Numbered from the stretch's first letter, positions 4,661-64,000 are shown. The stretch is DNA of 64,000 nt from a virus (IMGVR_UViG_3300033066_002431:1-64000), one strand, 5' to 3'. The notes: generated from the letters alone by a model not told the origin. Program-made: numbers and translations.

Positions 4661-5346
4661 CCGATCCCGCAACTACCCCCTCGACCATCGGCGACAAGCT
4701 CCTTGCGACCGTGGAGACCGCCTTCCGCGCGTTCATGACGGGCAGGGAGGCGCCGCCCCTCCAACCAGGCGACAGCACGCAGGCTGCGTGGGAGCGCTTC
4801 CGAGCGTGTCTCGAGACGGCAGAGCGCGGCACCTACGTCTGGCGCGCCGTTCCTAGCGAGCCCCCGACGGTCTCGATCGCCTGCACCTGCAAGCTGGCCA
4901 ACGACCCCAAGAAGGACGGAGCGCACTTCGCCACCAACCCGAGGTGCAAGATCCACGGGACGGCGCCCATCTCGCCGATGGTGCAGGCTGTGCGCGATGG
5001 CATGCCCTGGAAGGAAGCCGTTGCGCAATTCAGTACCGCCGCAGAGAGCGTCCCCCGTGCCCTATCGAAGCAGGACGCCATCGCGTGGAGCTCGCGGCTC
5101 GGGCCGGCTGCCCGCAGCATGGTCGACCTCGACAACCCGCGCGAGTGCGCGGACAGCTTCGGCGAGGGGCCGATGTCCGCTCCTCCCGAGGTCTACACCG
5201 CGCGGGAGATCGTGCGAGCGTACGTGCGGCATCTCGACGAGCACGGCATGTGCGGCGACGGCTCGGGCTGGCTCGATCCAACCGCTGGCACCTCCCCGTC
5301 GACCTCGCGCGCTTCAAGACCCTCACCACGGGGAACACCCTCGTGA
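4657..5346 (+). CDS. Hypothetical protein, probably chimeric at its 3' end
   Basis: Leaderless start after TACCCT; CTC...CKIHG motif; last ~20 codons overlap the DHFR frame and read as out-of-frame sequence. Confidence 0.6.
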   Translation: MTDPATTPSTIGDKLLATVETAFRAFMTGREAPPLQPGDSTQAAWERFRACLETAERGTYVWRAVPSEPPTVSIACTCKLANDPKKDGAHFATNPRCKIHGTAPISPMVQAVRDGMPWKEAVAQFSTAAESVPRALSKQDAIAWSSRLGPAARSMVDLDNPRECADSFGEGPMSAPPEVYTAREIVRAYVRHLDEHGMCGDGSGWLDPTAGTSPSTSRASRPSPRGTPS

Positions 5347-25113: not shown

Positions 25114-25770
25114 ATGGCCCCGCGCAAGAAGGCCGCTGACGAAGCGGCCAACCCCACCCCGGCCCCGGACGCTCCCGGGGCTCCCGCCCTGCCCGACAAC
25201 CCTCCCGAGGTCGCTTCGGCGATGCCCGCGGAGGGTGTCCCCGCCGACAGCGCTCCCGCGCTCGCCTCCGACGAAGCCGAGGAAGACGCCCACAAGGCCG
25301 CTCTCGAAGCTCTCGCCGCGGAAGACGACGTGGAGCCGGCCGCCGCTCCCGTGGAGCCCTCTGCGCCTCCCGAGGTGGTCTCGACCATCGACGCAGCGCC
25401 CGTCCTCACCGACGAGCAGATGGAGGTCATCCGTCTGAAGCGGGAGAAGGTCGCGCTCGAAGCCGAGGTCACCGCGCTCCAGGAACGGATCGGCGAGATC
25501 CGTGCTTCGGCGCAGACCGAGATCGAGTCGCTCCGGAGCCAGCTCGCGGGCATGTCCCACAAGCCGCCTCCCGCGCCCGTCTACGCGAAGGACCCGCTGC
25601 GGGAGGCGAAGAGCTTCGGCGTCCTCGCGACGTGGCTCGGTCCCGGCATCTACGGCGGACCGTACTACACGGTCGCTGGCGTGCGCATGCCGCAGGCGGT
25701 CGGCCTCACCACGGGCTACTTCCCGGCGGCGGACCTCCTCCGCTCGCCCGACGCCTTCAAGGCCACCTGA
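25114..25770 (+). CDS. Pro/Ala/Glu-rich protein with coiled coil
   Basis: GAGG SD; follows capsid gene; TGATG coupling downstream. Confidence 0.7.
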   Translation: MAPRKKAADEAANPTPAPDAPGAPALPDNPPEVASAMPAEGVPADSAPALASDEAEEDAHKAALEALAAEDDVEPAAAPVEPSAPPEVVSTIDAAPVLTDEQMEVIRLKREKVALEAEVTALQERIGEIRASAQTEIESLRSQLAGMSHKPPPAPVYAKDPLREAKSFGVLATWLGPGIYGGPYYTVAGVRMPQAVGLTTGYFPAADLLRSPDAFKAT

Positions 25771-53536: not shown

Positions 53537-54426
53537 AACTTCTCGTGCGCCATCACTTCGCGCGCGAGCCATTCCGCGACGTCGGTCTGAGACATCTTGA
53601 AGGCGAGCCCCGGCGCACGGCGCGCGAGCCCCATCCCCGTCTCGGCGAAGTGGACGTCGTGATCGGTGAGGGAGAAGCCCCACCGCTTGCGCTGGCTCCG
53701 CTTCACCTGTCCTCCCCGAAGCGCAGCGAGGAGAAGCCGCGTGCAGAACATCGGGTCCGGGGGGATCGGTAGCTCGCTCCGCTCGTTCAGCGAGGCGGCG
53801 AACCGCACGCTCTCCGCGATGATGGTGCGGCGGTCGACCGTGAACGGGTTCACCGCGAAGGTGTAGTCGTCGCGGCTGTCTTTCTCCGGCCGCTGGTAGA
53901 GCGCGATCAGCCGTTCGAGCGCTCGCAGGTTCGCAGGCGTGTTGAAGCGCGCTGCCTCTTCCTCAAGTCGCTCCGCCGGGAGGGAGAGCACGAACACGAT
54001 CTCGTCGCTGCTCATGCCCGGCTTGAACTCGAAGAGCGGCCGGAGGAAGGCTTCGATCAACGCCATCGGCTGCGGCTCGCCCGCGTGCTCGACGGTGACG
54101 TGCTGGACGGCGAACTCGTAGCCGGCGCTCTTCAGGAAGACGAGCGGGTGACCCTCGCTGCGAGAGGACGACCCCATCCCCATCGCCCGGAGCTTCCGGC
54201 CCGCCCGCACGTTCGCCAGGAAGGCGCTCGCAGCCGCGCGCGAGCACGTGAAGAGCGCGAACGTGGGCCGGAGCGGGTCCTTCTCCGAAAGCTCCCAATA
54301 CCCCTGCGCGTACTGGATAGCGACGAGCATCGCGCCGAAGCTCCGGCCCTTCGGTTCGGAGCGGTACCGACGCCGGCCGGTCGCCTCGCCGGTCTCGACG
54401 AGCACGGGGTAGGGTCCGTCGCTCAC
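53533..54426 (-). CDS. Hypothetical protein adjacent to the methyltransferase-helicase
   Basis: GTG start overlaps the upstream stop; globular composition. Confidence 0.75.
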   Translation of the reverse strand: MSDGPYPVLVETGEATGRRRYRSEPKGRSFGAMLVAIQYAQGYWELSEKDPLRPTFALFTCSRAAASAFLANVRAGRKLRAMGMGSSSRSEGHPLVFLKSAGYEFAVQHVTVEHAGEPQPMALIEAFLRPLFEFKPGMSSDEIVFVLSLPAERLEEEAARFNTPANLRALERLIALYQRPEKDSRDDYTFAVNPFTVDRRTIIAESVRFAASLNERSELPIPPDPMFCTRLLLAALRGGQVKRSQRKRWGFSLTDHDVHFAETGMGLARRAPGLAFKMSQTDVAEWLAREVMAHEKF

Positions 54427-55463
54427 TTCTTCGGCGCCTTCTTCTTCGACGTCGTGACCTCGGCGAGCAGCGGCTTGAACTCGTCGGGGATCTCGCCACC
54501 GAGCCCCCCGGCGATACGAAGCCCGGCCTCGAACGCCCCCATGCGCAGGTTCGTCTTCGCCTGGCGAGCGGCCGCGAGAACCAGCTCCGTCAGCGCGCGC
54601 CGCTCGAGCTTCTTCGGGGCCACCCCTTTCTCGACCGACTTCTTCGCCTTGTCCTTGTTCGTGGCCCGCGTTGCGGCCGCCGTCGTGGTGGCGCCGCTGG
54701 CCATGAGCATCTCGGCGGTCTCGATCTGCTTCTCGGGCATGGCGTCGAGCACCTTGGGGAGGAGCGCGAGCGGGATCTCGCCCGAGTCGAACCGCGGCCG
54801 GAGCGCCGGCACGAGGTTCCCCCAGCGCGACAGAGCCTCCATCTCGGCGGGGGACACGCGCGGGCGCATGCTGCGGAAGACGACGTCCATGTCCGCACCG
54901 CAGCGCTTTGCAGCCGCGATGGAGGCGGCGAGGACGGACGCCGAGTCGGGCAGGTTGCGCGGGTTGTTCGCCTGCAAGCGGGCGATCCAAAGCTCCGCGT
55001 CCGTCCCGGCGAAGGTCTTCAGCTCGACCCAGAGGTGCCAGGGCGCGTCGGCATCCGCCTTCGGATCGGGCGCGAGGGGCGCCGCGCGAGGGGCCGTGCG
55101 CCGGAGGTACGCCTGCACGAGCAGCGCGTTCTTGAGGCGCCGTGCGCCGTCGATCACTTCGAGCACGAGCGTCTCATCGCCGGGGAGCGTGGTCCAGCTT
55201 GCCACGACCTCGCCGGTCTTCTCGTTCACGGTGAAGGTCGGGCGCCCCTCCCTCACGCCGCGCTCGCGCACCGTGAAGTCCTCGGGGATGCCGTGCTTCT
55301 GGATCACCTCCTGAAGCTCCGCGTCGGGCGGGAGCATCCAGCGTGGGTGGGCCGTGTCCCCCTCGGTGATGATCGACAAGCTGTCGATCGTCGCCTTGGT
55401 GATGGAGCCCTTCTTGGTTGGGATGCCCTTCGAGCGGAGACGATCGGATTCGCTGAGACCCAT
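54423..55463 (-). CDS. ParB/Spo0J-like protein
   Basis: EVIDGARRL, ANNPRNL and HTH-like central region. Confidence 0.7.
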   Translation of the reverse strand: MGLSESDRLRSKGIPTKKGSITKATIDSLSIITEGDTAHPRWMLPPDAELQEVIQKHGIPEDFTVRERGVREGRPTFTVNEKTGEVVASWTTLPGDETLVLEVIDGARRLKNALLVQAYLRRTAPRAAPLAPDPKADADAPWHLWVELKTFAGTDAELWIARLQANNPRNLPDSASVLAASIAAAKRCGADMDVVFRSMRPRVSPAEMEALSRWGNLVPALRPRFDSGEIPLALLPKVLDAMPEKQIETAEMLMASGATTTAAATRATNKDKAKKSVEKGVAPKKLERRALTELVLAAARQAKTNLRMGAFEAGLRIAGGLGGEIPDEFKPLLAEVTTSKKKAPKK

Positions 55464-55488
55464 GGTAGTCCTCTTCTGTAGAACGTAC

Positions 55489-55517
55489 GTGATAAGAGCG
55501 CGATTGCGGATTGTCTA
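55489..55517 (-). promoter_or_regulatory. Class-B promoter
   Basis: TAGACA-N17-TATCAC. Confidence 0.7.
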
Positions 55518-55946
55518 TCCGTTCGGCGGCGGCGGGAGGTCGTCCGTGCTGGGGATGGCGCCGCCCGTGCCGACGAGCCGAGCGGCGAGGTCATCGGCGA
55601 CGCGCCCATACCAGATCGCTCCACGCTCGCCGCGCGGCCACGTCTCCGATCGCACCTTCGCGACCGGATCGATACCGAACGCGATGAAGGCGGCGTAGGC
55701 GTGCGAAAGAGCGGACGCCGCCCCCTGAAGATCCAGCCAGCCACGCGACAGGGGAGCCCCGGCATCCATCGCGCACATGTTGTCGGCGAGGACGAGCACG
55801 TGCGCCCGGCTGTAGTCGTCGACCGCGCGCAAGAGGCGGTCCGCCGTGGGAGAGGCGCGGCGACGGGCGCGCTCGTTTTCCTTCTCGGAGTTTTCCTTCT
55901 CGGAGGTGCGGTCGATGGGAGCGGTGAGCGGGTTCACGTGGTCCAT
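55515..55946 (-). CDS. Hypothetical protein
   Basis: AAGGA SD before ATG 55946. Confidence 0.65.
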   Translation of the reverse strand: MDHVNPLTAPIDRTSEKENSEKENERARRRASPTADRLLRAVDDYSRAHVLVLADNMCAMDAGAPLSRGWLDLQGAASALSHAYAAFIAFGIDPVAKVRSETWPRGERGAIWYGRVADDLAARLVGTGGAIPSTDDLPPPPNG

Positions 55947-55956
55947 GGTGGTCCTT

Positions 55957-56337
55957 TCAGGGAGCGAGCATGCGGTAGACGGTGTCGGCGAGGTCGCGCA
56001 CGGAGTCGCACGCCTTCTCGTCGCTGTAGCGGGCCGCCATCCGGTAGCAGAGCGCCATGCGCCGCAGGGCACCAGACAGCGGGATGAGCGTGGCGACGTC
56101 CATCGCCTCGCCCTCCGCGGGGAGGAGCTTCAAGAAGCTTTCCGTGGCGAAGACGGCCATCTCGTGACCGTCGGGGAGAGGCAGCTTGCGAGCACGACGC
56201 ACCACCTCGGCGATGCGTGCCGCGGGGTCGACTTCGGCGACGGCCGACACGGGGACCGGCGTCACGTCCGCCGGGGCGTGCGCCTTCATGTGAGCGGCGA
56301 AATCGCGGGGGTTCATGCGGCACGTTCGGAACGACAT
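55957..56337 (-). CDS. Hypothetical protein (leaderless)
   Basis: ATG 6 nt after TATCAC. Confidence 0.7.
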   Translation of the reverse strand: MSFRTCRMNPRDFAAHMKAHAPADVTPVPVSAVAEVDPAARIAEVVRRARKLPLPDGHEMAVFATESFLKLLPAEGEAMDVATLIPLSGALRRMALCYRMAARYSDEKACDSVRDLADTVYRMLAP

Positions 56338-56343
56338 GGGTAA

Positions 56344-56372
56344 GTGATAAGACAGCGAGCGCACGTTGTCAA
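56344..56372 (-). promoter_or_regulatory. Class-B promoter
   Basis: TTGACA-N17-TATCAC. Confidence 0.8.
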
Positions 56373-56443
56373 GAAAAACGACCGGGCCTCTCGACAGGGA
56401 TCGCGCTCGGCCGCACTCTCTCGCTCACCAAAGGAGCCTTCCC

Positions 56444-57064
56444 ATGCCCACCGTCCCCCTCTCGCTCTTCGTAGACTTCATGCTGATGGCCGGCACCGGC
56501 CGGATCGAGCACGCGCGCACTTTCAAGAAGACCGGCGCCGTGGAGAGCTTCTACAAGCCGCTCGTCGACTTGTTGGTGGGCGCGCACAGCGCGGGCCTTC
56601 CCATCAGGGAGACGATCGACGCCTTCATCTCGACTCGCATCGAAGAGCGCGAGCGGCGCATGTTCACCATCGTCGAGCGCGGCTACCTGAAGTTCCTCGA
56701 GACGCACCTGGATGTGGCCGGCGAGGAGCCGAGGTGGTTCGAGCCGCCCCTGCGGGACTACCCGATCGGCCAGCTCACCGTGCGCGTCGCCCCCGAGCTT
56801 GGCCTGCTCATCCAGGGCCGCCCGCACGTGATCAAGCTCTACCTCCGTGCGAACCCCATCAACCCACAGCAGATCGCCCTCACCACCACGCTGCTCACGA
56901 ACGCGCTCCAGACGACGTGGCCGGGGACGAACTTCGGTGTGCTCGACGTGCGGCGAGGTCGGCTCTTCACGCACCGCAGCGACAAGGGCGACCTCCCCAC
57001 GCTGGTGAAGGCCGAAGCGGCGACCTTCGCGGCCCTCTATGACGGCGTGACGGTGGGCCGATGA
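56444..57064 (+). CDS. Isolated plus-strand hypothetical protein, possible restriction-endonuclease-like fold
   Basis: AAGGAG SD; VRVAPELGLLIQG..HVIKLY motif; opposite orientation to its neighbours. Confidence 0.75.
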   Translation: MPTVPLSLFVDFMLMAGTGRIEHARTFKKTGAVESFYKPLVDLLVGAHSAGLPIRETIDAFISTRIEERERRMFTIVERGYLKFLETHLDVAGEEPRWFEPPLRDYPIGQLTVRVAPELGLLIQGRPHVIKLYLRANPINPQQIALTTTLLTNALQTTWPGTNFGVLDVRRGRLFTHRSDKGDLPTLVKAEAATFAALYDGVTVGR

Positions 57065-57249
57065 AGCCCGGCGTGGACGACTACCCGCCTGGAGTCCCTC
57101 TGCGCGGCTGCGGCGTCTTGCTGGTCATCGTCATCATGACGGCGATCGTTTACCCGCTTCTTCAGATCATCCCAGGTGAGCCGCCCACGACCCGAGGATC
57201 CGATCGGGCGTCACGAGCCACGGCGCGATCCTCGGGTGCTCGATCCTGA
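57061..57249 (+). CDS. Small membrane protein
   Basis: ATGA coupling; one hydrophobic segment. Confidence 0.45.
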   Translation: MKPGVDDYPPGVPLRGCGVLLVIVIMTAIVYPLLQIIPGEPPTTRGSDRASRATARSSGARS

Positions 57250-57784
57250 GCTTCTCCACCGCGCTCCACGCTGCGGTGACCGCGCCCCACCTCTCCTCGC
57301 CCTCCCCTCTCGACTTCAGCAAAGCCGTGGCGACCGCCTGCCCGGCGTGCGTGATGTCGTCGCGCAGCTCGGGGCACGCTCGCAGAAGCGACAGCAGCGC
57401 CAGCCGTGTGTTCGAGAGGTCGTCTACGAGATCATCGCTCCGGCCGATCGGGTCCACGCGGTCTGCCAGCGAGCCGGTGAGGCCTCTCCGCGCGCGCACG
57501 GTGGTGACGGGCACCTTCGCCCGGATGCACAGCACGCCGGCTGCCAGCGCCTTGTGGGTGAGCCGCATCGGGTCTGTCCCGACGGCGAACACGAGGCCCA
57601 CGTCCGCGCGCAGCGCTCTGTCGCGCCGAAGCTCCAAGGTGAAGCGCTGAACGCGGTCATCCCAGCCAGCGAGCACGCTGGTGCTCTCGACGATGACGGT
57701 GGTGGGAGAGACTTGGGCGACGAGCTCGACGGGCGTTGCGTCCGTGTCGGGCCAGTCCGCGTCGACGTGGAGGAAGAGGCGCAT
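57167..57784 (-). CDS. Hypothetical protein
   Basis: Protein-like ORF in the minus-strand run. Confidence 0.6.
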   Translation of the reverse strand: MRLFLHVDADWPDTDATPVELVAQVSPTTVIVESTSVLAGWDDRVQRFTLELRRDRALRADVGLVFAVGTDPMRLTHKALAAGVLCIRAKVPVTTVRARRGLTGSLADRVDPIGRSDDLVDDLSNTRLALLSLLRACPELRDDITHAGQAVATALLKSRGEGEERWGAVTAAWSAVEKLRIEHPRIAPWLVTPDRILGSWAAHLG

Positions 57785-57811
57785 CGCCTGACCGTAAGGC
57801 CGGGCCCAGCA

Positions 57812-58528
57812 TCAGCCAGCGGGCTTACGGCGGACCACGGTTACCTCGACTTCCACCGCGGCCTTCTTGCCCTTCTGGTAGGGGCTCTTCCCCTTGCTCT
57901 TGCCGCCCTTGCCCTTCTTCGGCTCGCGCGGCGGGCGTACGGGCTTCGGCTTCGGGGGCAGGATGAACCGCTTCGGCACGTGCCTCCCTTCGGCGGTGAG
58001 CCGCTTCACGATCCGCCTGTACTTCTTCCTGCGCGCGTCGGCGATCTCGGGGAGCGGCACCGGGGACGGCGCCGGCATGAAGAGCATCCGCGGCTGCGGG
58101 CGCTGCCAGTGGTCGCGATCGAAGATCCACAGGTAGCCGCGTCTGGAAAGCTCCTCTTGCCGGCGGCTCTTGAGGGCGCGGCTACGGACCACCGCGAAGA
58201 AGCGAGCGCCGAGCGTGCGCGGCTTGCCGTCGCTCTTGCGGGTGGTGACCCACGGCAGCGTGCTGGTGTTCGCCGTGCGCTCCGCGTCGAGCATCCAGGC
58301 CTTGCCGAAGAAGGCGTTGAGCCGTGCGAGCTGCAAGAGGGGGCGCGGGTTCGTCTCCCCGAGGCGCTGCGCGAGAAGCGCGAGCTGCTTGTCGGTGAGG
58401 ACGGGCGCGCCGGTGCTCTGCGGGAGCGCTCCGGTCTTGCGAGCTTGGAGGTAGACGGTGTGCGCGTCGGGCTCGCCCTTCGGAGGGCGGACGCGCGGCG
58501 TGTGCTGCACGCGAGGGTGGCGATACAT
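57812..58528 (-). CDS. Highly basic Arg/Lys/Pro-rich protein
   Basis: GGAGAG-type SD; KKGKGGKSKGK tail. Confidence 0.7.
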   Translation of the reverse strand: MYRHPRVQHTPRVRPPKGEPDAHTVYLQARKTGALPQSTGAPVLTDKQLALLAQRLGETNPRPLLQLARLNAFFGKAWMLDAERTANTSTLPWVTTRKSDGKPRTLGARFFAVVRSRALKSRRQEELSRRGYLWIFDRDHWQRPQPRMLFMPAPSPVPLPEIADARRKKYRRIVKRLTAEGRHVPKRFILPPKPKPVRPPREPKKGKGGKSKGKSPYQKGKKAAVEVEVTVVRRKPAG

Positions 58529-58558
58529 GCGGAGAGAGTAGGTCGCGCGGGCGAAGTG

Positions 58559-59311
58559 TCAGGTGTTCGCGAGCGTCTGAAGTGAGCGCGCGAGCACGCG
58601 GCGCTGCGCGTGAGACATGGTCGCGAAGTTGTCGCGGTTCGACCGGATCTCGGGGCCGGCGTCGAGCGACTCGACCTCGATCAGGTTGTCGAACGCGGGG
58701 CCGATGCGATCGAAGAAGAGCGACTGAGACACCACCGCGCTGGGAGCCTCTTCGCAGGCAGTCACGAACGCGTTGATCAAGATCGCGAGCGCCCGACGCT
58801 TCTCCCGCAGCACCTTCCCCCGGTGCGCCGCGCCACCGGCCGCCGGTTCGCCCGCGACCTCGGCAAAGACGTCCGTCGACACGGCGTCTTGCACGGCGTT
58901 CGTCGGGACCACCTTCACGAAGTCGACGAGCATCGCGCTGCTGTCCTGAAGCATCCCGTCCACGACCTCGATCAACACGGCTCGCGTATCGTCGCGCGGC
59001 TCGCGCTTCACGGCGTCGAGCACCATGCGCGCCGCCATGTTCCACAGGCCTGCCCCGAAGAAGAGGTAGGTCTCGGCGTCGATCGGCGTGACCTTCATGC
59101 TCGCGCACAGAGCCAACGCAGCACGCGCGCGAGTCGCCGTGGCCTCGTTCCGTGAGAGCGCATCGAACAGCCCGACGAGCACGCCGGCCGGCAGCGACCG
59201 GAAGGCATCCGCGGCGATGGTCTTGAGCGCGCCGTAGCGCAGCACGTCGGGGAGGCGCCCCGCAGCCATCGCGCGCTCGGTCATCTCGGTGAGCATCTCG
59301 GCGGCGGTCAC
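58559..59311 (-). CDS. Hypothetical helical protein
   Basis: GTG start overlaps the upstream TGA. Confidence 0.7.
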   Translation of the reverse strand: MTAAEMLTEMTERAMAAGRLPDVLRYGALKTIAADAFRSLPAGVLVGLFDALSRNEATATRARAALALCASMKVTPIDAETYLFFGAGLWNMAARMVLDAVKREPRDDTRAVLIEVVDGMLQDSSAMLVDFVKVVPTNAVQDAVSTDVFAEVAGEPAAGGAAHRGKVLREKRRALAILINAFVTACEEAPSAVVSQSLFFDRIGPAFDNLIEVESLDAGPEIRSNRDNFATMSHAQRRVLARSLQTLANT

Positions 59312-59895
59312 GAGTCGTCCTCCGCGCTGGTGAACGACAACGACACCTGCGCGGCCGCTCGGCCGGTGACGCCGACCTTGCGGCGCAGCTCGGGGTGTTC
59401 GGCGACGAGCGCGCGCACCTCCAACAGCGGCGACCGCACGCCCGACGTGGCGCGCTCCTCGGTGGCCTGGAGAAGGATCGCGAGGTCGAGCCCCGCCTGC
59501 GTCACGAAAGCGGCGTAGGCTGCCGCGCGCTGCCGCAAGGCGGGGTCCGTGAGGAAGCCCCGGTACATCGCCGCCCCGCGCGCGACGAGCGTCCCCCAGA
59601 CGCCCACGGCGGTCGCGATATCGTCCGGCTCCATGCGGTGACACTCGCTCTCGAGGGTCTGGCTGACGTTGAGCATGAGGAGCCGCCGCGTCGGGTCGCC
59701 CGCGAGCCCCTTCTCTCGGGCGGTCGCCATCGGGGCGAGACCGATCATCGCGTAGGCGGCGGTGAGGACTTGCGTGGGAAGCTCGACGAGCCCCTGACCG
59801 GCTGCGAGGAGAATGTGGTGCGTGGTGCGGAAGTCGGACGCGAGCGCTGGAAAGCGGGTGGCCAGCGCTGGGAGCGCCGTGTGGATGTTGCGCAT
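59308..59895 (-). CDS. Hypothetical protein
   Basis: GGAGG SD. Confidence 0.75.
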   Translation of the reverse strand: MRNIHTALPALATRFPALASDFRTTHHILLAAGQGLVELPTQVLTAAYAMIGLAPMATAREKGLAGDPTRRLLMLNVSQTLESECHRMEPDDIATAVGVWGTLVARGAAMYRGFLTDPALRQRAAAYAAFVTQAGLDLAILLQATEERATSGVRSPLLEVRALVAEHPELRRKVGVTGRAAAQVSLSFTSAEDDS

Positions 59896-59909
59896 GAGGT
59901 TCCTCCAAT

Positions 59910-59953
59910 GCAGCGAGCCCCGGCCCTTTCGGGTGCGGGGCCTGGCTCGCTGC
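59910..59953 (-). promoter_or_regulatory. Conserved GNRA-capped RNA hairpin, copy 1
   Basis: Core CCCGCACCCGAAAGGGCCGGG inside a 9-10 bp outer stem; second copy at 63009-63055. Confidence 0.65.
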
Positions 59954-59962
59954 GGAAGGACG

Positions 59963-60277
59963 TCAGGAGCCGGTCACCGTGGGGAGCGGACCGTCCTTCG
60001 GTGGTGCGACCACGCGATATCCGGACGCCTGCCAATTTTTCAGCGTGTCGCTGGCGATGTACGCAAGGGCCACCGCGGCGCGCCCGACATCTGTGTCGCC
60101 GACGTGCAGGAACACATCCCACGCAAGCAGCCCGAAGTTCCCAGCCACCTCCGGCGGCTGAAACAAGAGGCTTGCATACACGCCCAACAGACGACGGACG
60201 TCTTCGTCCCTCTCTGCGCCGACGAAGTGCGCGTCCACAGCCATCTTCCACGCTGTGATCCAATCGATCGCTTTCAC
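59963..60277 (-). CDS. Hypothetical protein
   Basis: GTGA coupling, GGAG SD. Confidence 0.65.
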   Translation of the reverse strand: MKAIDWITAWKMAVDAHFVGAERDEDVRRLLGVYASLLFQPPEVAGNFGLLAWDVFLHVGDTDVGRAAVALAYIASDTLKNWQASGYRVVAPPKDGPLPTVTGS

Positions 60278-60528
60278 GTCTCCCGTCCTTCCTTCGTGGC
60301 GCCGAGCGCCGCCATCTCTGCCACCGTCGCGGGCCTCGCCTGAAACTCCACGACCCAACCTCGATCCTCCGCGTACCCTTGCGCGACGCCGTTCTCGTGA
60401 ACGAAGAAGCTCGTCTGGGTCATCACGACGAGGTACTTGCCGTCCCGCTTCATGCAGCGACCGACGTAGGACCCGTACGCGGGGCGCTTCTCCCCCACCA
60501 TCACCTGCCACTTCGCCGCGATCCTCAC
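60274..60528 (-). CDS. Hypothetical protein
   Basis: GTGA coupling. Confidence 0.6.
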   Translation of the reverse strand: MRIAAKWQVMVGEKRPAYGSYVGRCMKRDGKYLVVMTQTSFFVHENGVAQGYAEDRGWVVEFQARPATVAEMAALGATKEGRET

Positions 60529-60716
60529 GATCGCACAGCTTCGAAGGTGGCCAGCCCCCGCGCGAGCTTGCGCAGCACGGCAGCCGGGAGCGGCTCATCG
60601 GCGAGCACGGCCATCACGTCGATCGGGGGCACCTTCGCCGCCTGCGCGAGCGCGCCCACGGTCAGCCCGGCGCCCACAAGCCGAACCACGCGACGGAGGA
60701 TGGTGTCCTGTTCCAT
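60525..60716 (-). CDS. Small Cro-like HTH protein
   Basis: GLTVGALAQAAKVP...V..VL helix-turn-helix pattern; AGGAGG SD. Confidence 0.6.
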   Translation of the reverse strand: MEQDTILRRVVRLVGAGLTVGALAQAAKVPPIDVMAVLADEPLPAAVLRKLARGLATFEAVRS

Positions 60717-60738
60717 GCCCTCGAGCCTCCTAACCGAG

Positions 60739-60768
60739 ATGATAACGGTACCGTGCGCATCGTGTCAA
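60739..60768 (-). promoter_or_regulatory. Promoter of the Cro-like gene, containing the operator core ACGGTACCGT
   Basis: TTGACA-N18-TATCAT; ACGGTACCGT at 60745-60754. Confidence 0.7.
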
Positions 60769-60772
60769 ACGA

Positions 60773-61051
60773 TCAATCGTGCGTGCCGTGGTGGCGCTCC
60801 CCGTGCTCGGGGCACCGCGTCACGTGACCGCACGTACATTCGTGCGAGACCACCGCGCGACGGCAGCACACCGCGCGCGGCATGATTGGTGGGAGCGCCG
60901 GCCCCTCGGCAAGCTCGGCCGCCTCAACCTCGGCAAGCTTGGCAGCACGCGCTTTCATCGGGGCCCCCGTCATCCGAAGGTCCCAGAGCTGCGCGCGGAG
61001 AGCTGCCACCGAGAGAGGAGCCGTGGGGACCAGAATGCGCGCGGCGTTCAT
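60773..61051 (-). CDS. Small protein with Cys/His-rich C-terminus (leaderless)
   Basis: CC...ECTCG...CPEHG; ATG 6 nt after TATCAA. Confidence 0.7.
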   Translation of the reverse strand: MNAARILVPTAPLSVAALRAQLWDLRMTGAPMKARAAKLAEVEAAELAEGPALPPIMPRAVCCRRAVVSHECTCGHVTRCPEHGERHHGTHD

Positions 61052-61057
61052 AGTTGA

Positions 61058-61086
61058 TTGATAAGGCCACGCGCTCACGTTGTCAA
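61058..61086 (-). promoter_or_regulatory. Class-B promoter
   Basis: TTGACA-N17-TATCAA. Confidence 0.75.
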
Positions 61087-61404
61087 AACATTATTTCGAC
61101 TTTCCTCGAAACGCGCATCCTGTCGCGCCCGCTCGGCCATGCGCGCTCGAAGGTCCGCCGCGAGGGACCGTACCTGCTCGGTCCGGCCGGTCAATGTCGC
61201 CTGTCGGGCGGTCGTTGTGAGCACGTACGTGTCCCCCTGGAAGCCGCCCACGCTCACCAAGCGCACCCTGTTCTTCTCGGCGCTCGCGGACGCGACGATC
61301 GTCCCCTCCGCGGTGCTCAGGAGGTGGGGCTCCTGGAAGTAGACCTCGTGCCCGTGAATCGCGAGGTCCGAAGCGAGGAAGACGAGAGCAGCAAGCGCGT
61401 CCAT
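61075..61404 (-). CDS. Hypothetical protein
   Basis: First gene of the leftward arm; ATG 8 nt after TATCAC. Confidence 0.7.
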   Translation of the reverse strand: MDALAALVFLASDLAIHGHEVYFQEPHLLSTAEGTIVASASAEKNRVRLVSVGGFQGDTYVLTTTARQATLTGRTEQVRSLAADLRARMAERARQDARFEESRNNVLTT

Positions 61405-61412
61405 GGTCGAGA

Positions 61413-61456
61413 GTGATAAGATATTTATTGCACTCTGTCAAGCGTCGCCTTACCCT
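61413..61456. promoter_or_regulatory. Overlapping divergent promoters
   Basis: Leftward TTGACA (61441-36)-N17-TATCAC (61418-13); rightward TTGCAC (61428-33)-N17-TACCCT (61451-56). Confidence 0.75.
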
Positions 61457-61465
61457 GGATTGACC

Positions 61466-62092
61466 ATGAGCTACGCAACATCGCCCTCCGCTCTTCTCGT
61501 CGCCGCGCACTGCGCATGCTGCGGCAAGGTCCTGTCGAACGCTCCGTCTGTCGAGAGCGGCATGGGCGACACGTGCCGCAGAAAGCACGGCTACGCGACG
61601 CCGGAGGGGACGGCGGACCTCTCGGCCGCTCTCGAGGCGGTGAAGCCGTACATGACCGCTCTGGCGCTCCCCGTGGACGCCACGTCGGACGCGCGCCGGC
61701 TGGCGAACCTGTTGGTGCATCGCATCGCGGTGCTTCAGGACGGCGAGGTTGCGGCCGCGTGCGTGGACGGGATCCGGGCCCTCGGGTTTGAGACGCTCGG
61801 TGGCCGCTGCGCGAAGCGCATGACGAAGATCGTGGTCCGGGTGGAAGACGACGAGAAGACCGGCGACACCACGATCGTGGTGAAGGCTCCCTACTCCGAC
61901 GGTGGGGCGCTCCGCTCCCTTCCTGGCCGGCGCTGGGATGCCGCTACGAAGACGACGCGCATTCGGGTGTACCGGAGCATGGAGGGGGCCAAGACGTCGC
62001 TCCTGTCCGCCCTCGCGGCCGACTTCCCCGGAGCTTGGGTCGACGGGCCGACCGGGTTGTTCCTTCTCCCCCGCGGCGAGGTGGCAGCGTGA
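61466..62092 (+). CDS. DUF6011-like Zn-finger protein with HARP-like C-terminal domain
   Basis: CACCGKVLSNAPSVESGMGDTC; KAPYS....LRSLPGRRWDAATK. Confidence 0.7.
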   Translation: MSYATSPSALLVAAHCACCGKVLSNAPSVESGMGDTCRRKHGYATPEGTADLSAALEAVKPYMTALALPVDATSDARRLANLLVHRIAVLQDGEVAAACVDGIRALGFETLGGRCAKRMTKIVVRVEDDEKTGDTTIVVKAPYSDGGALRSLPGRRWDAATKTTRIRVYRSMEGAKTSLLSALAADFPGAWVDGPTGLFLLPRGEVAA

Positions 62093-62316
62093 GCGCCTCG
62101 AAGCCGCCCTCCGGTCGCAGCCGGACCACCGTGCTCGCTCAGGTGCTCGGCTCGTTCGCGGGCATCAAGGGCAACCTGAGCGAAGCCGACTTCGAGTGGG
62201 GGTGCGCGTGGATCGAGCGCGAGCACGGGAGCGACCTCGAAGCCGCAAAGGTGGCCCTCGGGGGCGAGCTGGCAGAGCAACAGCGGGCGGTCGCGCTCGT
62301 CGTCCGGGTGCTCTGA
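62089..62316 (+). CDS. Hypothetical protein
   Basis: GTGA coupling. Confidence 0.6.
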   Translation: MSASKPPSGRSRTTVLAQVLGSFAGIKGNLSEADFEWGCAWIEREHGSDLEAAKVALGGELAEQQRAVALVVRVL

Positions 62317-62636
62317 TGGACGACGACTTCGACGCCAAGATGGACCGCGCCCGTGCAGAGAGGCGCCTCGCGCGGGTCTGTCTGCTCCGGGCGATGGGAG
62401 GGGCGCCGGTGCCCTTCTGCGCCCCGTGCGCGGCGCCCTACGCGGACACCGTCGTCGTGGTCCACCGCGACACCTACCAGGCGACCTTGGGGCAGTGGCG
62501 CGCGACTCGATTCGAGGGAGAGGAGCCGGTCGGACACACCACACACCGGACCTTCTGTGAAGCGCTCGACGAGATCGCGGTGTGGCGTGCGGTGCTCCCC
62601 CTCGCACGGTCCCTCGCGAGCCTCGCCGCGGAGTGA
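62316..62636 (+). CDS. Hypothetical protein
   Basis: TGATG coupling. Confidence 0.65.
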   Translation: MDDDFDAKMDRARAERRLARVCLLRAMGGAPVPFCAPCAAPYADTVVVVHRDTYQATLGQWRATRFEGEEPVGHTTHRTFCEALDEIAVWRAVLPLARSLASLAAE

Positions 62637-62682
62637 CGCCGAGAGGGGGCCAGCAACTATCTTGGGGGGCGGTCGCAAAAAG

Positions 62683-62713
62683 CGTTGACGGTATCGTCAA
62701 CGTGAATTAAGAA
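62683..62713 (+). promoter_or_regulatory. Promoter with overlapping 20-bp palindromic operator (one mismatch)
   Basis: CGTTGACGGTATCGTCAACG; TTGACG-N17-TAAGAA; A-tract upstream. Confidence 0.8.
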
Positions 62714-62762
62714 GAGGGGGCCGGCGACACGAAGGAAGTGTCCTGGCAGGAAGAAGACGACC

Positions 62763-63002
62763 ATGGCCATGCTCCGTACCCTCCGCACCGATGGCACCCG
62801 CTCGATCAAGCCCCTCGGCATCCTGACGAAGGGCGAGCGGGACGCGCTCCGCTTCGCGATGGACCGCGACGAGATGGTCATTCTGTACGAGGTGCTCCCC
62901 TCGAACGGGGAGGCGTGGGGCCGCTGCAAGCCGGCCGACTTCGAGGCGACTTGGCAGCGGCTCTGTGAGGGGGCGCGCTCCCCCGACGTCGAGATGAACT
63001 AG
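62763..63002 (+). CDS. Hypothetical protein
   Basis: Directly downstream of the operator-promoter. Confidence 0.65.
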   Translation: MAMLRTLRTDGTRSIKPLGILTKGERDALRFAMDRDEMVILYEVLPSNGEAWGRCKPADFEATWQRLCEGARSPDVEMN

Positions 63003-63008
63003 TCGACC

Positions 63009-63055
63009 CGTCCGAAGGTCTGGCCCGCACCCCGAGAGGGGCCGGGCCTTCGGGC
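63009..63055 (+). promoter_or_regulatory. Conserved GNRA-capped RNA hairpin, copy 2
   Basis: Core CCCGCACCCGAGAGGGGCCGGG inside the outer stem cgtccgaagg/ccttcgggcg. Confidence 0.65.
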
Positions 63056-63058
63056 GTT

Positions 63059-63646
63059 GTGAGCCTCTCCACGACCCCCGCGAACGACACGGCCGCCGTC
63101 ACCCTCACCATCGGCGCGACCTACCAGGCCGGCGCGTGGCGCGTCCAGCGGTGGACGGGCCGTGTCGAGGTGACCGCCCTCGAGAACGCCGGCCGCCGGG
63201 GCAAGGCGTGCCCGGTCTTCTCGGTGGACACGCCCTACACCACCATGGATACGCAGCTCGACGCGGTGGCGCACGTGGCGGTCGCTGCCGCGCGGGACGG
63301 CGTTCACGTCGAGACGATGAGGGCGACCCTCATGGCCGAAGCCGTGGAGAAGCTCGCCTTCAGGGCGAGCGAGAAGCGCGGCGTGAACGTGCCGCGTCAC
63401 CCCGAGATCAAGGTGGACGCGCCCCTCGTCCGGTGCCGCTTCACCGAGGTGGAAGCTCTGTGCTGCTTCTCGTTCTGGCTCGGGAAGCCAGGCGGCATGA
63501 AGCACGACGAGCTTCTAGCCGCCGTGTCGCGGCTGGACGCGGCCAAGGCCTACGCGTGGGCCAAGGACCGCCAAGAGGAGATCGTCGGTATGAACGTGCA
63601 GGCCTTCCGCGTCGCTATGATCAGGATCGGTGCTCGCTTCCGGTGA
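63059..63646 (+). CDS. Hypothetical protein
   Basis: TTG start right after the hairpin; globular composition. Confidence 0.65.
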   Translation: MSLSTTPANDTAAVTLTIGATYQAGAWRVQRWTGRVEVTALENAGRRGKACPVFSVDTPYTTMDTQLDAVAHVAVAAARDGVHVETMRATLMAEAVEKLAFRASEKRGVNVPRHPEIKVDAPLVRCRFTEVEALCCFSFWLGKPGGMKHDELLAAVSRLDAAKAYAWAKDRQEEIVGMNVQAFRVAMIRIGARFR

Positions 63647-63704
63647 GGGGAGAAGACCTCTTCTGAGGGGAGAAAAAACTTTCTTGAGGGTGGGTGAAGA
63701 AAAA

Positions 63705-63736
63705 ACGTTGACGGTACCGTCAACGTGAATTAAGGT
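63705..63736 (+). promoter_or_regulatory. Promoter with perfect 22-bp palindromic operator
   Basis: ACGTTGACGGTACCGTCAACGT (63705-26); TTGACG-N17-TAAGGT; A-tract upstream. Confidence 0.85.
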
Positions 63737-63783
63737 CAGGGAGTCGACGGCGAGGACAGCCGAGACGAAGAAGGACGGACCCC

Positions 63784-63972
63784 ATGATCAAGCTCACCAA
63801 GAAGATGATGCAGGCGGCGAAGGCGATGACGACCGAGCGCCGTGCCCTGATGGATGAGCTGCTGAACGAGGCGCGCGCGACGCGCCCCGGCATGACGGCC
63901 GAGGAGACGGTCCGCTGGATGCCGGTGAGCTACCAGCCCGACGTGGCGGCCATCCTCACTCTCGGGTTGTGA
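63784..63972 (+). CDS. Small hypothetical protein
   Basis: AAGGA SD; downstream of the operator-promoter. Confidence 0.65.
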   Translation: MIKLTKKMMQAAKAMTTERRALMDELLNEARATRPGMTAEETVRWMPVSYQPDVAAILTLGL

Positions 63973-64000
63973 GAGGGGCCGGGGGGCTCGTCCGGGGGGA

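Follow-up and report, generated by a model that had tools for sequence, protein, structure and literature searches.

Here, we describe a small RNA hairpin that recurs between genes in the provirus represented by the IMG/VR record IMGVR_UViG_3300033066_002431 and in many other phage contigs. The window, that is, the whole stretch of DNA from which the analysis started, comprises bases 1-64000 of this 76,578-base record (~68% G+C); it contains no tRNA genes, no Rfam matches at gathering score and no matches to GenBank phage DNA. Between 59 and 67 kb of the record, small genes without assigned function diverge from a set of sigma-70-like promoters, and it is among these genes that two hairpins with a common core, CCCG-CA-CCC(C)-GARA-(G)GGG-C-CGGG, lie on opposite strands (copies A and B; Table 1).

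Hairpins A and B

Read 5′ to 3′, copy A is GCAGCGAGC-CAGGC-CCCG-CA-CCC-GAAA-GGG-C-CGGG-GCTCGCTGC and copy B is CGTCCGAAGG-TCTGG-CCCG-CA-CCCC-GAGA-GGGG-C-CGGG-CCTTCGGGCG. The outer stems of the two copies (9 bp in A, 10 bp in B) are unrelated in sequence, with pairing kept in both, and the lower stem of B, GGCCCG/CGGGCC, is compensatory relative to that of A. An earlier note on this DNA had described both hairpins, their common core and their fully different yet paired outer stems, and the sequence bears out this description, including the coordinates of A; copy B ends one base further downstream than the note had it. The sense strands of both copies fold far more stably than dinucleotide shuffles (z −3.6 for A and −3.7 for B, with none of 200 shuffles per element folding as well), whereas the antisense strand of B is not far better than its shuffles (z −1.3), which supports the note's reading of the element as structured and as acting on the strand that is transcribed. 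In addition, the note placed the hairpins just upstream of start codons, between the first genes of the two divergent arms. The former part holds: A starts 10 nt past a TGA (59963-59965) and ends 14 nt ahead of the ATG at 59895, and B starts 7 nt past a TAG (63000-63002) and ends 2 nt ahead of the GTG at 63059. The latter part fails for A, which lies behind the third gene after the promoter at 60739-60768.

Copy A is followed by a Shine-Dalgarno (SD) sequence with which a short anti-SD stretch on the other side of the hairpin is predicted to pair, extending the structure (Table 1); the minimum-energy fold of 59900-59965 on which this prediction is based has −39.8 kcal/mol, and the same arrangement, GCCUC with GAGGC, is predicted for a further copy, C. 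Copy B (63047-63066) shares its 3′ flank, CTTCGGGCGTTGTGA(G/C)CC, with an otherwise unrelated contig, L084 (~4798-4817). In both, a GTG start follows 2 nt past the hairpin with no SD, and the proteins encoded downstream have no similarity to each other.

A family of hairpins in high-GC phages

Copies A and B, together with C, D and a weak copy E elsewhere in the record, belong to a wider family of intercistronic hairpins in uncultured high-GC phages, which is previously undescribed but ordinary in kind. The family comprises at least 42 copies in 32 contigs. An exact-pattern scan of IMG/VR recovered the same core in five other phage contigs, and a scan of species-representative genomes added five more cores, in small or misbinned contigs of metagenome-assembled genomes; the latter scan mostly returned perfect-palindrome terminators and was filtered. 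Two covariance models of the element, R1 and R2, score copy A at 46.4 and 43.9 bits, respectively (E ~4e-9), and copy B at 51.6 and 46.3 bits. The earlier note listed only the two full copies; C emerged from a search of the whole record, and D and E were found with later models, C and D lying beyond the window.

In the minimum-energy folds of these relatives, a lower stem GCCCCG/CGGGGC is topped by CA opposite C and by the cap CCC(C)-GAAA-(G)GGG. These relatives have a 3′ UU(U) bulge in place of the 5-nt 5′ bulge, which is particular to this provirus. R1 further found diverged copies in the same contigs, with the upper stems and loops GGUC/GACC with GCAA, CUGG/CCGG with AUCAAA, and CCCCU/AGGGG with CCCC. 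The conserved unit consists of the lower stem G(C/G)CCCG/CGGG(G/C)C and a 2×1 internal loop (5′-CA versus C, hereafter CA/C). Above it, the upper stem is 3-6 bp long and of any sequence (17 different ones in the family), and the small apical loop is GNRA in 21 of the 42 members, the others having CCCC, TCAC, ATCAAA, TCT, TTC and more. Below it, UU usually lies directly past the lower stem (in the 20 copies found without requiring T, a T occupies position +1 in 19 and position +2 in 16), and the ribosome-binding site of the next gene follows a few bases on. A looser outer helix pairs a C-rich 5′ flank with a G-rich 3′ flank. The recurring order is core, UU(U), G-rich stretch, (G/A)U(U/A), SD, 5-9 nt and AUG.

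The earlier note had proposed a covariance-model search for relatives, and homologues with compensatory stem changes were indeed found: in the model-fitted alignment, 99.8% of the cells are paired, and in 5 of the 10 pairs both sides change. All shuffles fell short of the alignment in both paired fraction and covariation score, and 3′ partners slid by one column were at most 66% paired. Covarying outer stems are claimed here only for A versus B, because across the family the outer stem fails a composition-matched shuffle test.

The CA/C internal loop is specific. With the lower stem, CA/C and TT fixed, at least 119 loci were recovered; among the matches listed, an upper hairpin exactly fills the gap at 36 of the 86 distinct CA/C loci versus 8 of 97 for an AC/C control (p 9e-8), and in contigs with at least 58% G+C the corresponding counts, again among the matches listed, are 26 of 42 and 4 of 59. 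When the internal loop was left free, the asymmetric loops recovered were CA/C (four times) and GC/U (once), and when the cap and CA/C were fixed and the lower stem left free, an additional lower stem, ACCCGG/CCGGGU, came to light.

Rfam 15 was searched with ten stretches at E thresholds of up to 5 or 10, and no match fell on the elements; around copy B, the Rfam matches were at chance level, the best being 6C RNA with 20 bits versus the 47 needed. When the region and a 43-nt element were compared with GenBank phages by BLAST, the outcome was no match or only chance-level GC hairpins, indicating that no named phage carries the element. A covariance-model search of five bacterial genomes (3.5-8.8 Mb), limited to 150 scored candidates out of more than 8000 per genome, returned only two matches, both already known.

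A single locus is conserved across species in Thermoanaerobaculia and Acidobacteriota genomes (L021, L026, L042, L048, L071, L074, L076 and L125). It reads GC-CCCG-CA-CCCC-GAAA-GGGG-G-CGGG-GC, with CA opposite G, and continues with 8-9 T. With such a run of T behind it, the core looks like a canonical intrinsic terminator; it occurs in this form in genomes of Thermoanaerobaculia and of deltaproteobacteria.

Placement among genes

The family has a marked preference for the gap between two genes. The stop codon of an upstream open reading frame (ORF) lies 11-28 nt (mode 19-20) ahead of the lower stem in 26 of the 42 copies, and a downstream ORF starts within 60 nt, mostly 8-27 nt, in 33; both features are present at 22 of the 42 copies in the sense orientation versus 2 in the antisense orientation (p 4e-5). 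All five copies of the provirus lie between co-directional genes and are oriented with transcription. The predicted openness of ribosome sites past the element is lower than that of control sites (0.36 versus 0.48 unpaired, p 0.003).

In five carrier contigs, the element directly follows the major capsid gene (four Mu-like gpT and one PF09950; Pfam, Major_capside). These copies have no Rfam match and are therefore not the Rfam downstream-of-gpT motif. Other carriers have two or three copies among tiny early genes, in one contig three within 700 nt. The element is found amid ORFan genes, and from one phage to another there is no relationship between the proteins that flank it. Furthermore, tblastn and all-against-all BLAST detected no protein common to six whole carrier genomes, a result that small, fast-evolving proteins could escape; this points to a host factor or to an intrinsic property of the RNA.

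Further copies, half-sites and genomic setting

The identity between A and C extends through the following ribosome site (GCTCGCTGC-[A/G]TT-GGAGG), and the genes behind the two copies are unrelated. Copy E scores 18.4 bits with R1 (E 0.03) and 16.8 bits with R2 (E 0.06), and its fold has a z of only −0.9; it is located between a stop at 54423 and an ATG at 54330, and the ORF downstream has 265 codons and a third-position G+C content of 0.90. The noise level of the models in this G+C-rich DNA is illustrated by a 19-bit match at 25159-25184 (plus strand), which we discarded as a false positive inside a Pro/Ala-rich coding region starting at 25115. Accordingly, no element follows the capsid gene of the provirus itself.

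Table 1. Coordinates of the hairpins and associated features; positions are those of the provirus record unless a contig is named
Feature	Position	Strand	Description
Copy A, whole hairpin	59910-59953	−	9-bp outer stem, 5-nt 5′ bulge, lower stem, CA/C internal loop, CCC-GAAA-GGG cap
Copy A, core	59914-59944	−	
UCCUUC	59955-59960	−	just past the upstream TGA; predicted to pair with the SD of the next gene, extending hairpin A
SD, GGAGGA, of gene 59308-59895	59901-59906	−	3 nt past hairpin A; predicted to pair with 59955-59960
Copy B, whole hairpin	63009-63056	+	10-bp outer stem, 5-nt 5′ bulge, CA/C loop, CCCC-GAGA-GGGG cap
Copy B, core	63019-63051	+	
Copy C	65205-65247	+	91% identical to A over 53 nt
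Copy D	66705-66737		lower stem CCCCU/AGGGG (compensatory change), loop UUCC; 38 bits, E 1e-7
Copy E	54337-54365	−	weak, possibly degenerate; GCUCCG-AA-CC-GAAG-GG-C-CGGAGC, then UUC
Orphan 3′ half, GAGAGGGGCCGGG	63971-63983	+	exact 13-mer, identical to B 63034-63046
Half-site, GAGAGGGGGCC	62641-62651	+	not part of the element; chance level (at least one match in 39 of 100 shuffles)
Capsid gene ahead of element	L005 3551-4594		
Capsid gene ahead of element	L120 1241-2209		
Capsid gene ahead of element	L243 5790-6737		
Capsid gene ahead of element	L262 4236-5183		
Capsid gene ahead of element	L154 12554-13588		

Two partial copies of the 3′ half had also been suggested in the earlier note. One of them, at 62641, dissolves into chance; the other is an exact 13-mer of the 3′ half of B, for which ~0.03 exact matches are expected by our own composition estimate (0.42 with one mismatch allowed), and it overlaps the last two bases of the TGA (63970-63972) that ends the first gene of the next promoter cassette. 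Neither half-site folds or scores with the covariance models, and the orphan half may be a scar or a chance match.

Four near-identical strong promoter units recur at ~1 kb spacing (62683-62712, 63705-63736, 64858-64887 and 65830-65859). Each consists of an A-tract, then TTGACGGTACCGTCAACG, in which the −35 box lies inside a 20-22 bp palindrome, then TGAATTAAG, and leads a cassette of 2-4 tiny genes; for both B and C, the gene in front is the first of such a cassette. The idea that a hairpin follows the first gene of every cassette failed, the gaps after 63972 and 66122 folding no better than shuffles. On the minus strand, promoters of the form TTGACA-N17/18-TATC(A) are found at 60739-60768, ~61058-61095 and ~61405-61445, of which the second is only ~6 nt ahead of the ATG at 61052, suggesting a leaderless message. 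The first rightward gene (61466-62092, plus strand) encodes a DUF6011 motif (Pfam PF19474, E 2e-7), and the small protein encoded before copy C (64935-65195) contains CxxC pairs and weakly matches an unnamed PHROG; these were the only matches when ten proteins flanking the elements were compared with Pfam and PHROGs. The structural module of the provirus (13740-45637) is distantly related (25-48% identity) to those of two other hairpin-bearing contigs (G003 and G005), with which the early genes are not shared.

Interpretation

The placement of the element fits 3′-end formation, given that the stop codon lies 11-28 nt before it and the next start mostly 8-27 nt after it, that capsid genes stand in front of it in five carriers, that T mostly occupies positions +1 and +2, and that the core with 8-9 T resembles a canonical terminator in bacterial genomes. 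Most likely, the hairpin, placed between a stop codon and the next ribosome site, sets the survival of the message on either side. More specifically, we tentatively favour, with less than even confidence, the view that the element punctuates the mRNA in cis, its hairpin forming and protecting 3′ ends through leaky attenuation. This view draws on the very stable sense fold, the intercistronic and sense-oriented copies, the UU, the spacing to stop and start codons, and the less open ribosome sites; the closest precedent put to a test is the PeSL stem-loop of T4-type phages, described below. Under this scenario, the core would form just outside the footprint of the ribosome terminating on the upstream gene, and would both create 3′ ends, through leaky, U-poor attenuation of the host polymerase, and protect them, through a block to 3′ exonucleases. 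The front cistron would then outlast and out-express the cistrons behind the hairpin, the favoured cistron being the first small gene after a strong promoter in the case of B and C, and a capsid gene in that of other phages. In transcripts that read through, the outer helix would partly cover the next ribosome site, and in A and C the anti-SD might pair with the SD.

Several observations weigh against this interpretation. The hairpin itself has the build of an intrinsic terminator (GC-rich, 5-14 bp, small loop), but the element is not a canonical terminator: a U tract of ~7-9 nt is absent, the run being 2-3 U in the family and a single U in A and C, and a consensus terminator scan of 54000-64000 flags no copy. 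The genes behind the hairpins lack promoters of their own, which means that termination could be no more than partial. Attenuation and exonuclease blocking both leave the conservation of CA/C in particular unexplained. Across the family, the outer helix does not outperform composition-matched shuffles, the median being 22 paired positions per element, and several of the statistics given above rest on the matches listed, on patterns that fix part of the motif, or on an alignment fitted to the model. Finally, the energetically best ViennaRNA structures of A, B and C are slipped in register: the 5-nt bulge is paired, the stem is continuous and the loop has 10-12 nt, at a gain of 3-7 kcal/mol over the GNRA-capped fold. 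Because the relatives adopt the GNRA-capped fold and the covariation supports it, we nevertheless take the GNRA-capped inner hairpin with its CA/C interruption, as proposed in the earlier note, to be the conserved fold.

The main competitor, rather unlikely in our estimation and in fact compatible with mRNA punctuation, is processing of the RNase III type, with cleavage by the host enzyme falling in the internal loop that separates the outer helix from the core, so that the core would stay on the upstream message as a protective 3′ hairpin and the downstream ribosome site would be freed. The RNase III sites of T7 are typified by an asymmetric internal loop that is conserved, and the present element has a two-tier architecture with internal loops and occurs in several intercistronic copies per phage, clustered among small early genes. 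Its median number of paired positions, 22, compares with the ~22 bp that RNase III accommodates (PMC6212723). Ribosome sites that are partly occluded before any cut, as predicted here, would also suit such a role, as would the presence of five copies in the 76-kb provirus against nothing additional in the five bacterial genomes, a weak contrast given that 150 candidates per genome were scored. The processing scenario is, however, poorly served by an outer helix that does not exceed the composition control; CA/C is not among the known RNase III determinants, and the conserved UU could equally be the remnant of a U-tract.

Given that neither punctuation nor RNase III processing explains CA/C, a specific reader, be it a host enzyme or another protein, is retained as an option. 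Such a reader is central to the proposal of a protein-binding RNA operator, for antitermination of the nut/boxB kind or for translational control, in which a phage or host protein would recognize CA/C and the lower stem. Covariation of both stems around a conserved CA/C with conserved flanking G-C pairs is the pattern expected of a sequence-specific reader, and coat-protein operators of RNA phages also rely on a bulged base on the 5′ side; furthermore, copies occur in both divergent arms, with a fixed spacing to a ribosome site that is partly occluded. Yet we consider an operator improbable, and the lambda boxB/nut version, which headed the earlier note, is rejected. Like nut, the element is a small hairpin, GNRA-capped in this provirus, and is present in both divergent early arms. 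In boxB, however, the loop is the part recognized, by an Arg-rich peptide, whereas in our family it is the apical loop that is not conserved, only half of the members having GNRA. An alignment of 13 copies with 22-nt flanks contains no conserved block outside the core and hence no boxA-like linear motif. Instead of one site per early operon, the provirus has 4-5 copies, and copies of relatives lie behind capsid genes of late operons. No N-like partner common to the six carriers was found at the BLAST level, and the neighbours, including the Arg-rich product of 57812-58528, lack informative Pfam or PHROG matches, the DUF6011 and unnamed PHROG hits aside. The other functions suggested in the note, RNase III processing and translational control, stay under consideration.

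A purely translational explanation, coupling, is quite improbable. Here, the ribosome finishing the upstream gene would melt the outer helix and thereby license the next start, the core merely anchoring the fold. The outer 5′ arm begins 5-12 nt past the stop, which is inside the footprint of a terminating ribosome, and the core lies outside it; the anti-SD:SD pairing predicted in A and C, the reduced openness of the ribosome sites past the element, and the GTG that follows 2 nt past the hairpin without an SD in B and its look-alike in L084 all point the same way. Nevertheless, SD sequestration is not a family-wide trait, the outer helix fails to exceed the composition control, and coupling leaves the conserved core, the CA/C loop and the UU without explanation.

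The weakest contender, a very unlikely one, is an element acting at the DNA level, either a PeSL-like recombination linker that shuffles small genes or an attC- or REP-like (repetitive extragenic palindromic) single-stranded DNA hairpin for a recombinase or replication protein: the setting among ORFan genes with flanking proteins unrelated between phages would suit it, and the only hints for a linker are the A-C identity, which includes the ribosome site and links opposite arms and unrelated genes, and the orphan 3′ half behind the first gene of another cassette, which begins exactly at the loop, within which PeSL crossovers were mapped (PMC2839356), but the stems vary by compensatory change, the orientation follows transcription, there are only 1-5 copies per phage, and no RAYT or IntI-type partner was seen, no search aimed at one having been made. 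For the same reason, namely that the stems covary rather than being copied, a mobile miniature inverted-repeat transposable element or REP was dropped. An attC-like R box (GTT and purines) was also abandoned, the purines being the ribosome site and GTA or GTC being equally frequent in place of GTT, as was stop-codon read-through, for which the frames do not join.

Beyond the punctuation role favoured above, it is possible, though on balance unlikely, that the CA/C hairpin represents a widespread phage RNA motif, so far undescribed, and that a single conserved host factor, either RNase III or some other RNA-binding enzyme, reads its conserved 2×1 loop. Very different high-GC phages would thereby have a shared, portable signal for cutting or ending polycistronic messages, behind capsid genes as well as between early ones. 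If a host factor does read CA/C, the element would offer a handle on how expression is apportioned along long operons, in hosts that seem to use few U-tract terminators, as well as a compact part for operon tuning in high-GC bacteria. If, instead, it is merely a stable hairpin, it would amount to routine genome punctuation.

Comparison with known phage elements

Stable hairpins between phage genes have long been known, in T4 and T7 and as the PeSL and SAS/ESAS elements. What is new here is a searchable signature, consisting of the lower stem, the CA/C loop and UU, with full stem covariation, which is absent from Rfam and common to dozens of otherwise unrelated uncultured high-GC phages, where it is found behind Mu-like capsid genes and between early ORFan genes.

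Hyperstable C(UUCG)G hairpins were reportedly described between T4 cistrons by Tuerk et al. in 1988. The CA/C element resembles them as a short, stable GC hairpin between a stop codon and the next ribosome site, often with no U-tract, in several copies per phage and with a tetraloop preference, here for GNRA. It differs in that the internal loop and the lower stem, rather than the apical loop, are conserved, in its two-tiered build followed by UU, and in its carriers, which are high-GC uncultured phages. The RNase III signals of T7 (R0.3 to R1.3) are likewise irregular intercistronic hairpins of about two turns, placed between small early genes and endowed with a conserved asymmetric internal loop. 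By contrast, their sequences are unrelated to those of the present family, in which the outer helix is weakly supported, and which also occurs behind late capsid genes.

In the PeSL (promoter-early stem-loop) cassettes of the T4-type phages RB49 and phi1, stem-loops recur among ORFan genes, in the space from the stop codon to the SD, and lowered reporter expression like a strong terminator (PMC2839356). The region studied here similarly combines hairpins with repeated strong sigma-70 promoters, and PeSL copies may recombine. However, the promoter repeats and the hairpins of the provirus occupy separate intergenic gaps rather than forming one cassette, and PeSL stems are polyG followed by polyC, with no CA/C loop. 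The SAS/ESAS repeats (start-associated and extended start-associated sequences) of Cluster K mycobacteriophages are, like the CA/C hairpins, phage-specific repeats in one orientation, located a few bases upstream of the starts of non-structural genes from various gene families (PMC3203893). According to the authors, the ESAS inverted repeats lack compensatory changes of the RNA type (PMC3203893), whereas the CA/C hairpins display them, and SAS includes the ribosome site itself, which in the CA/C family follows the hairpin.

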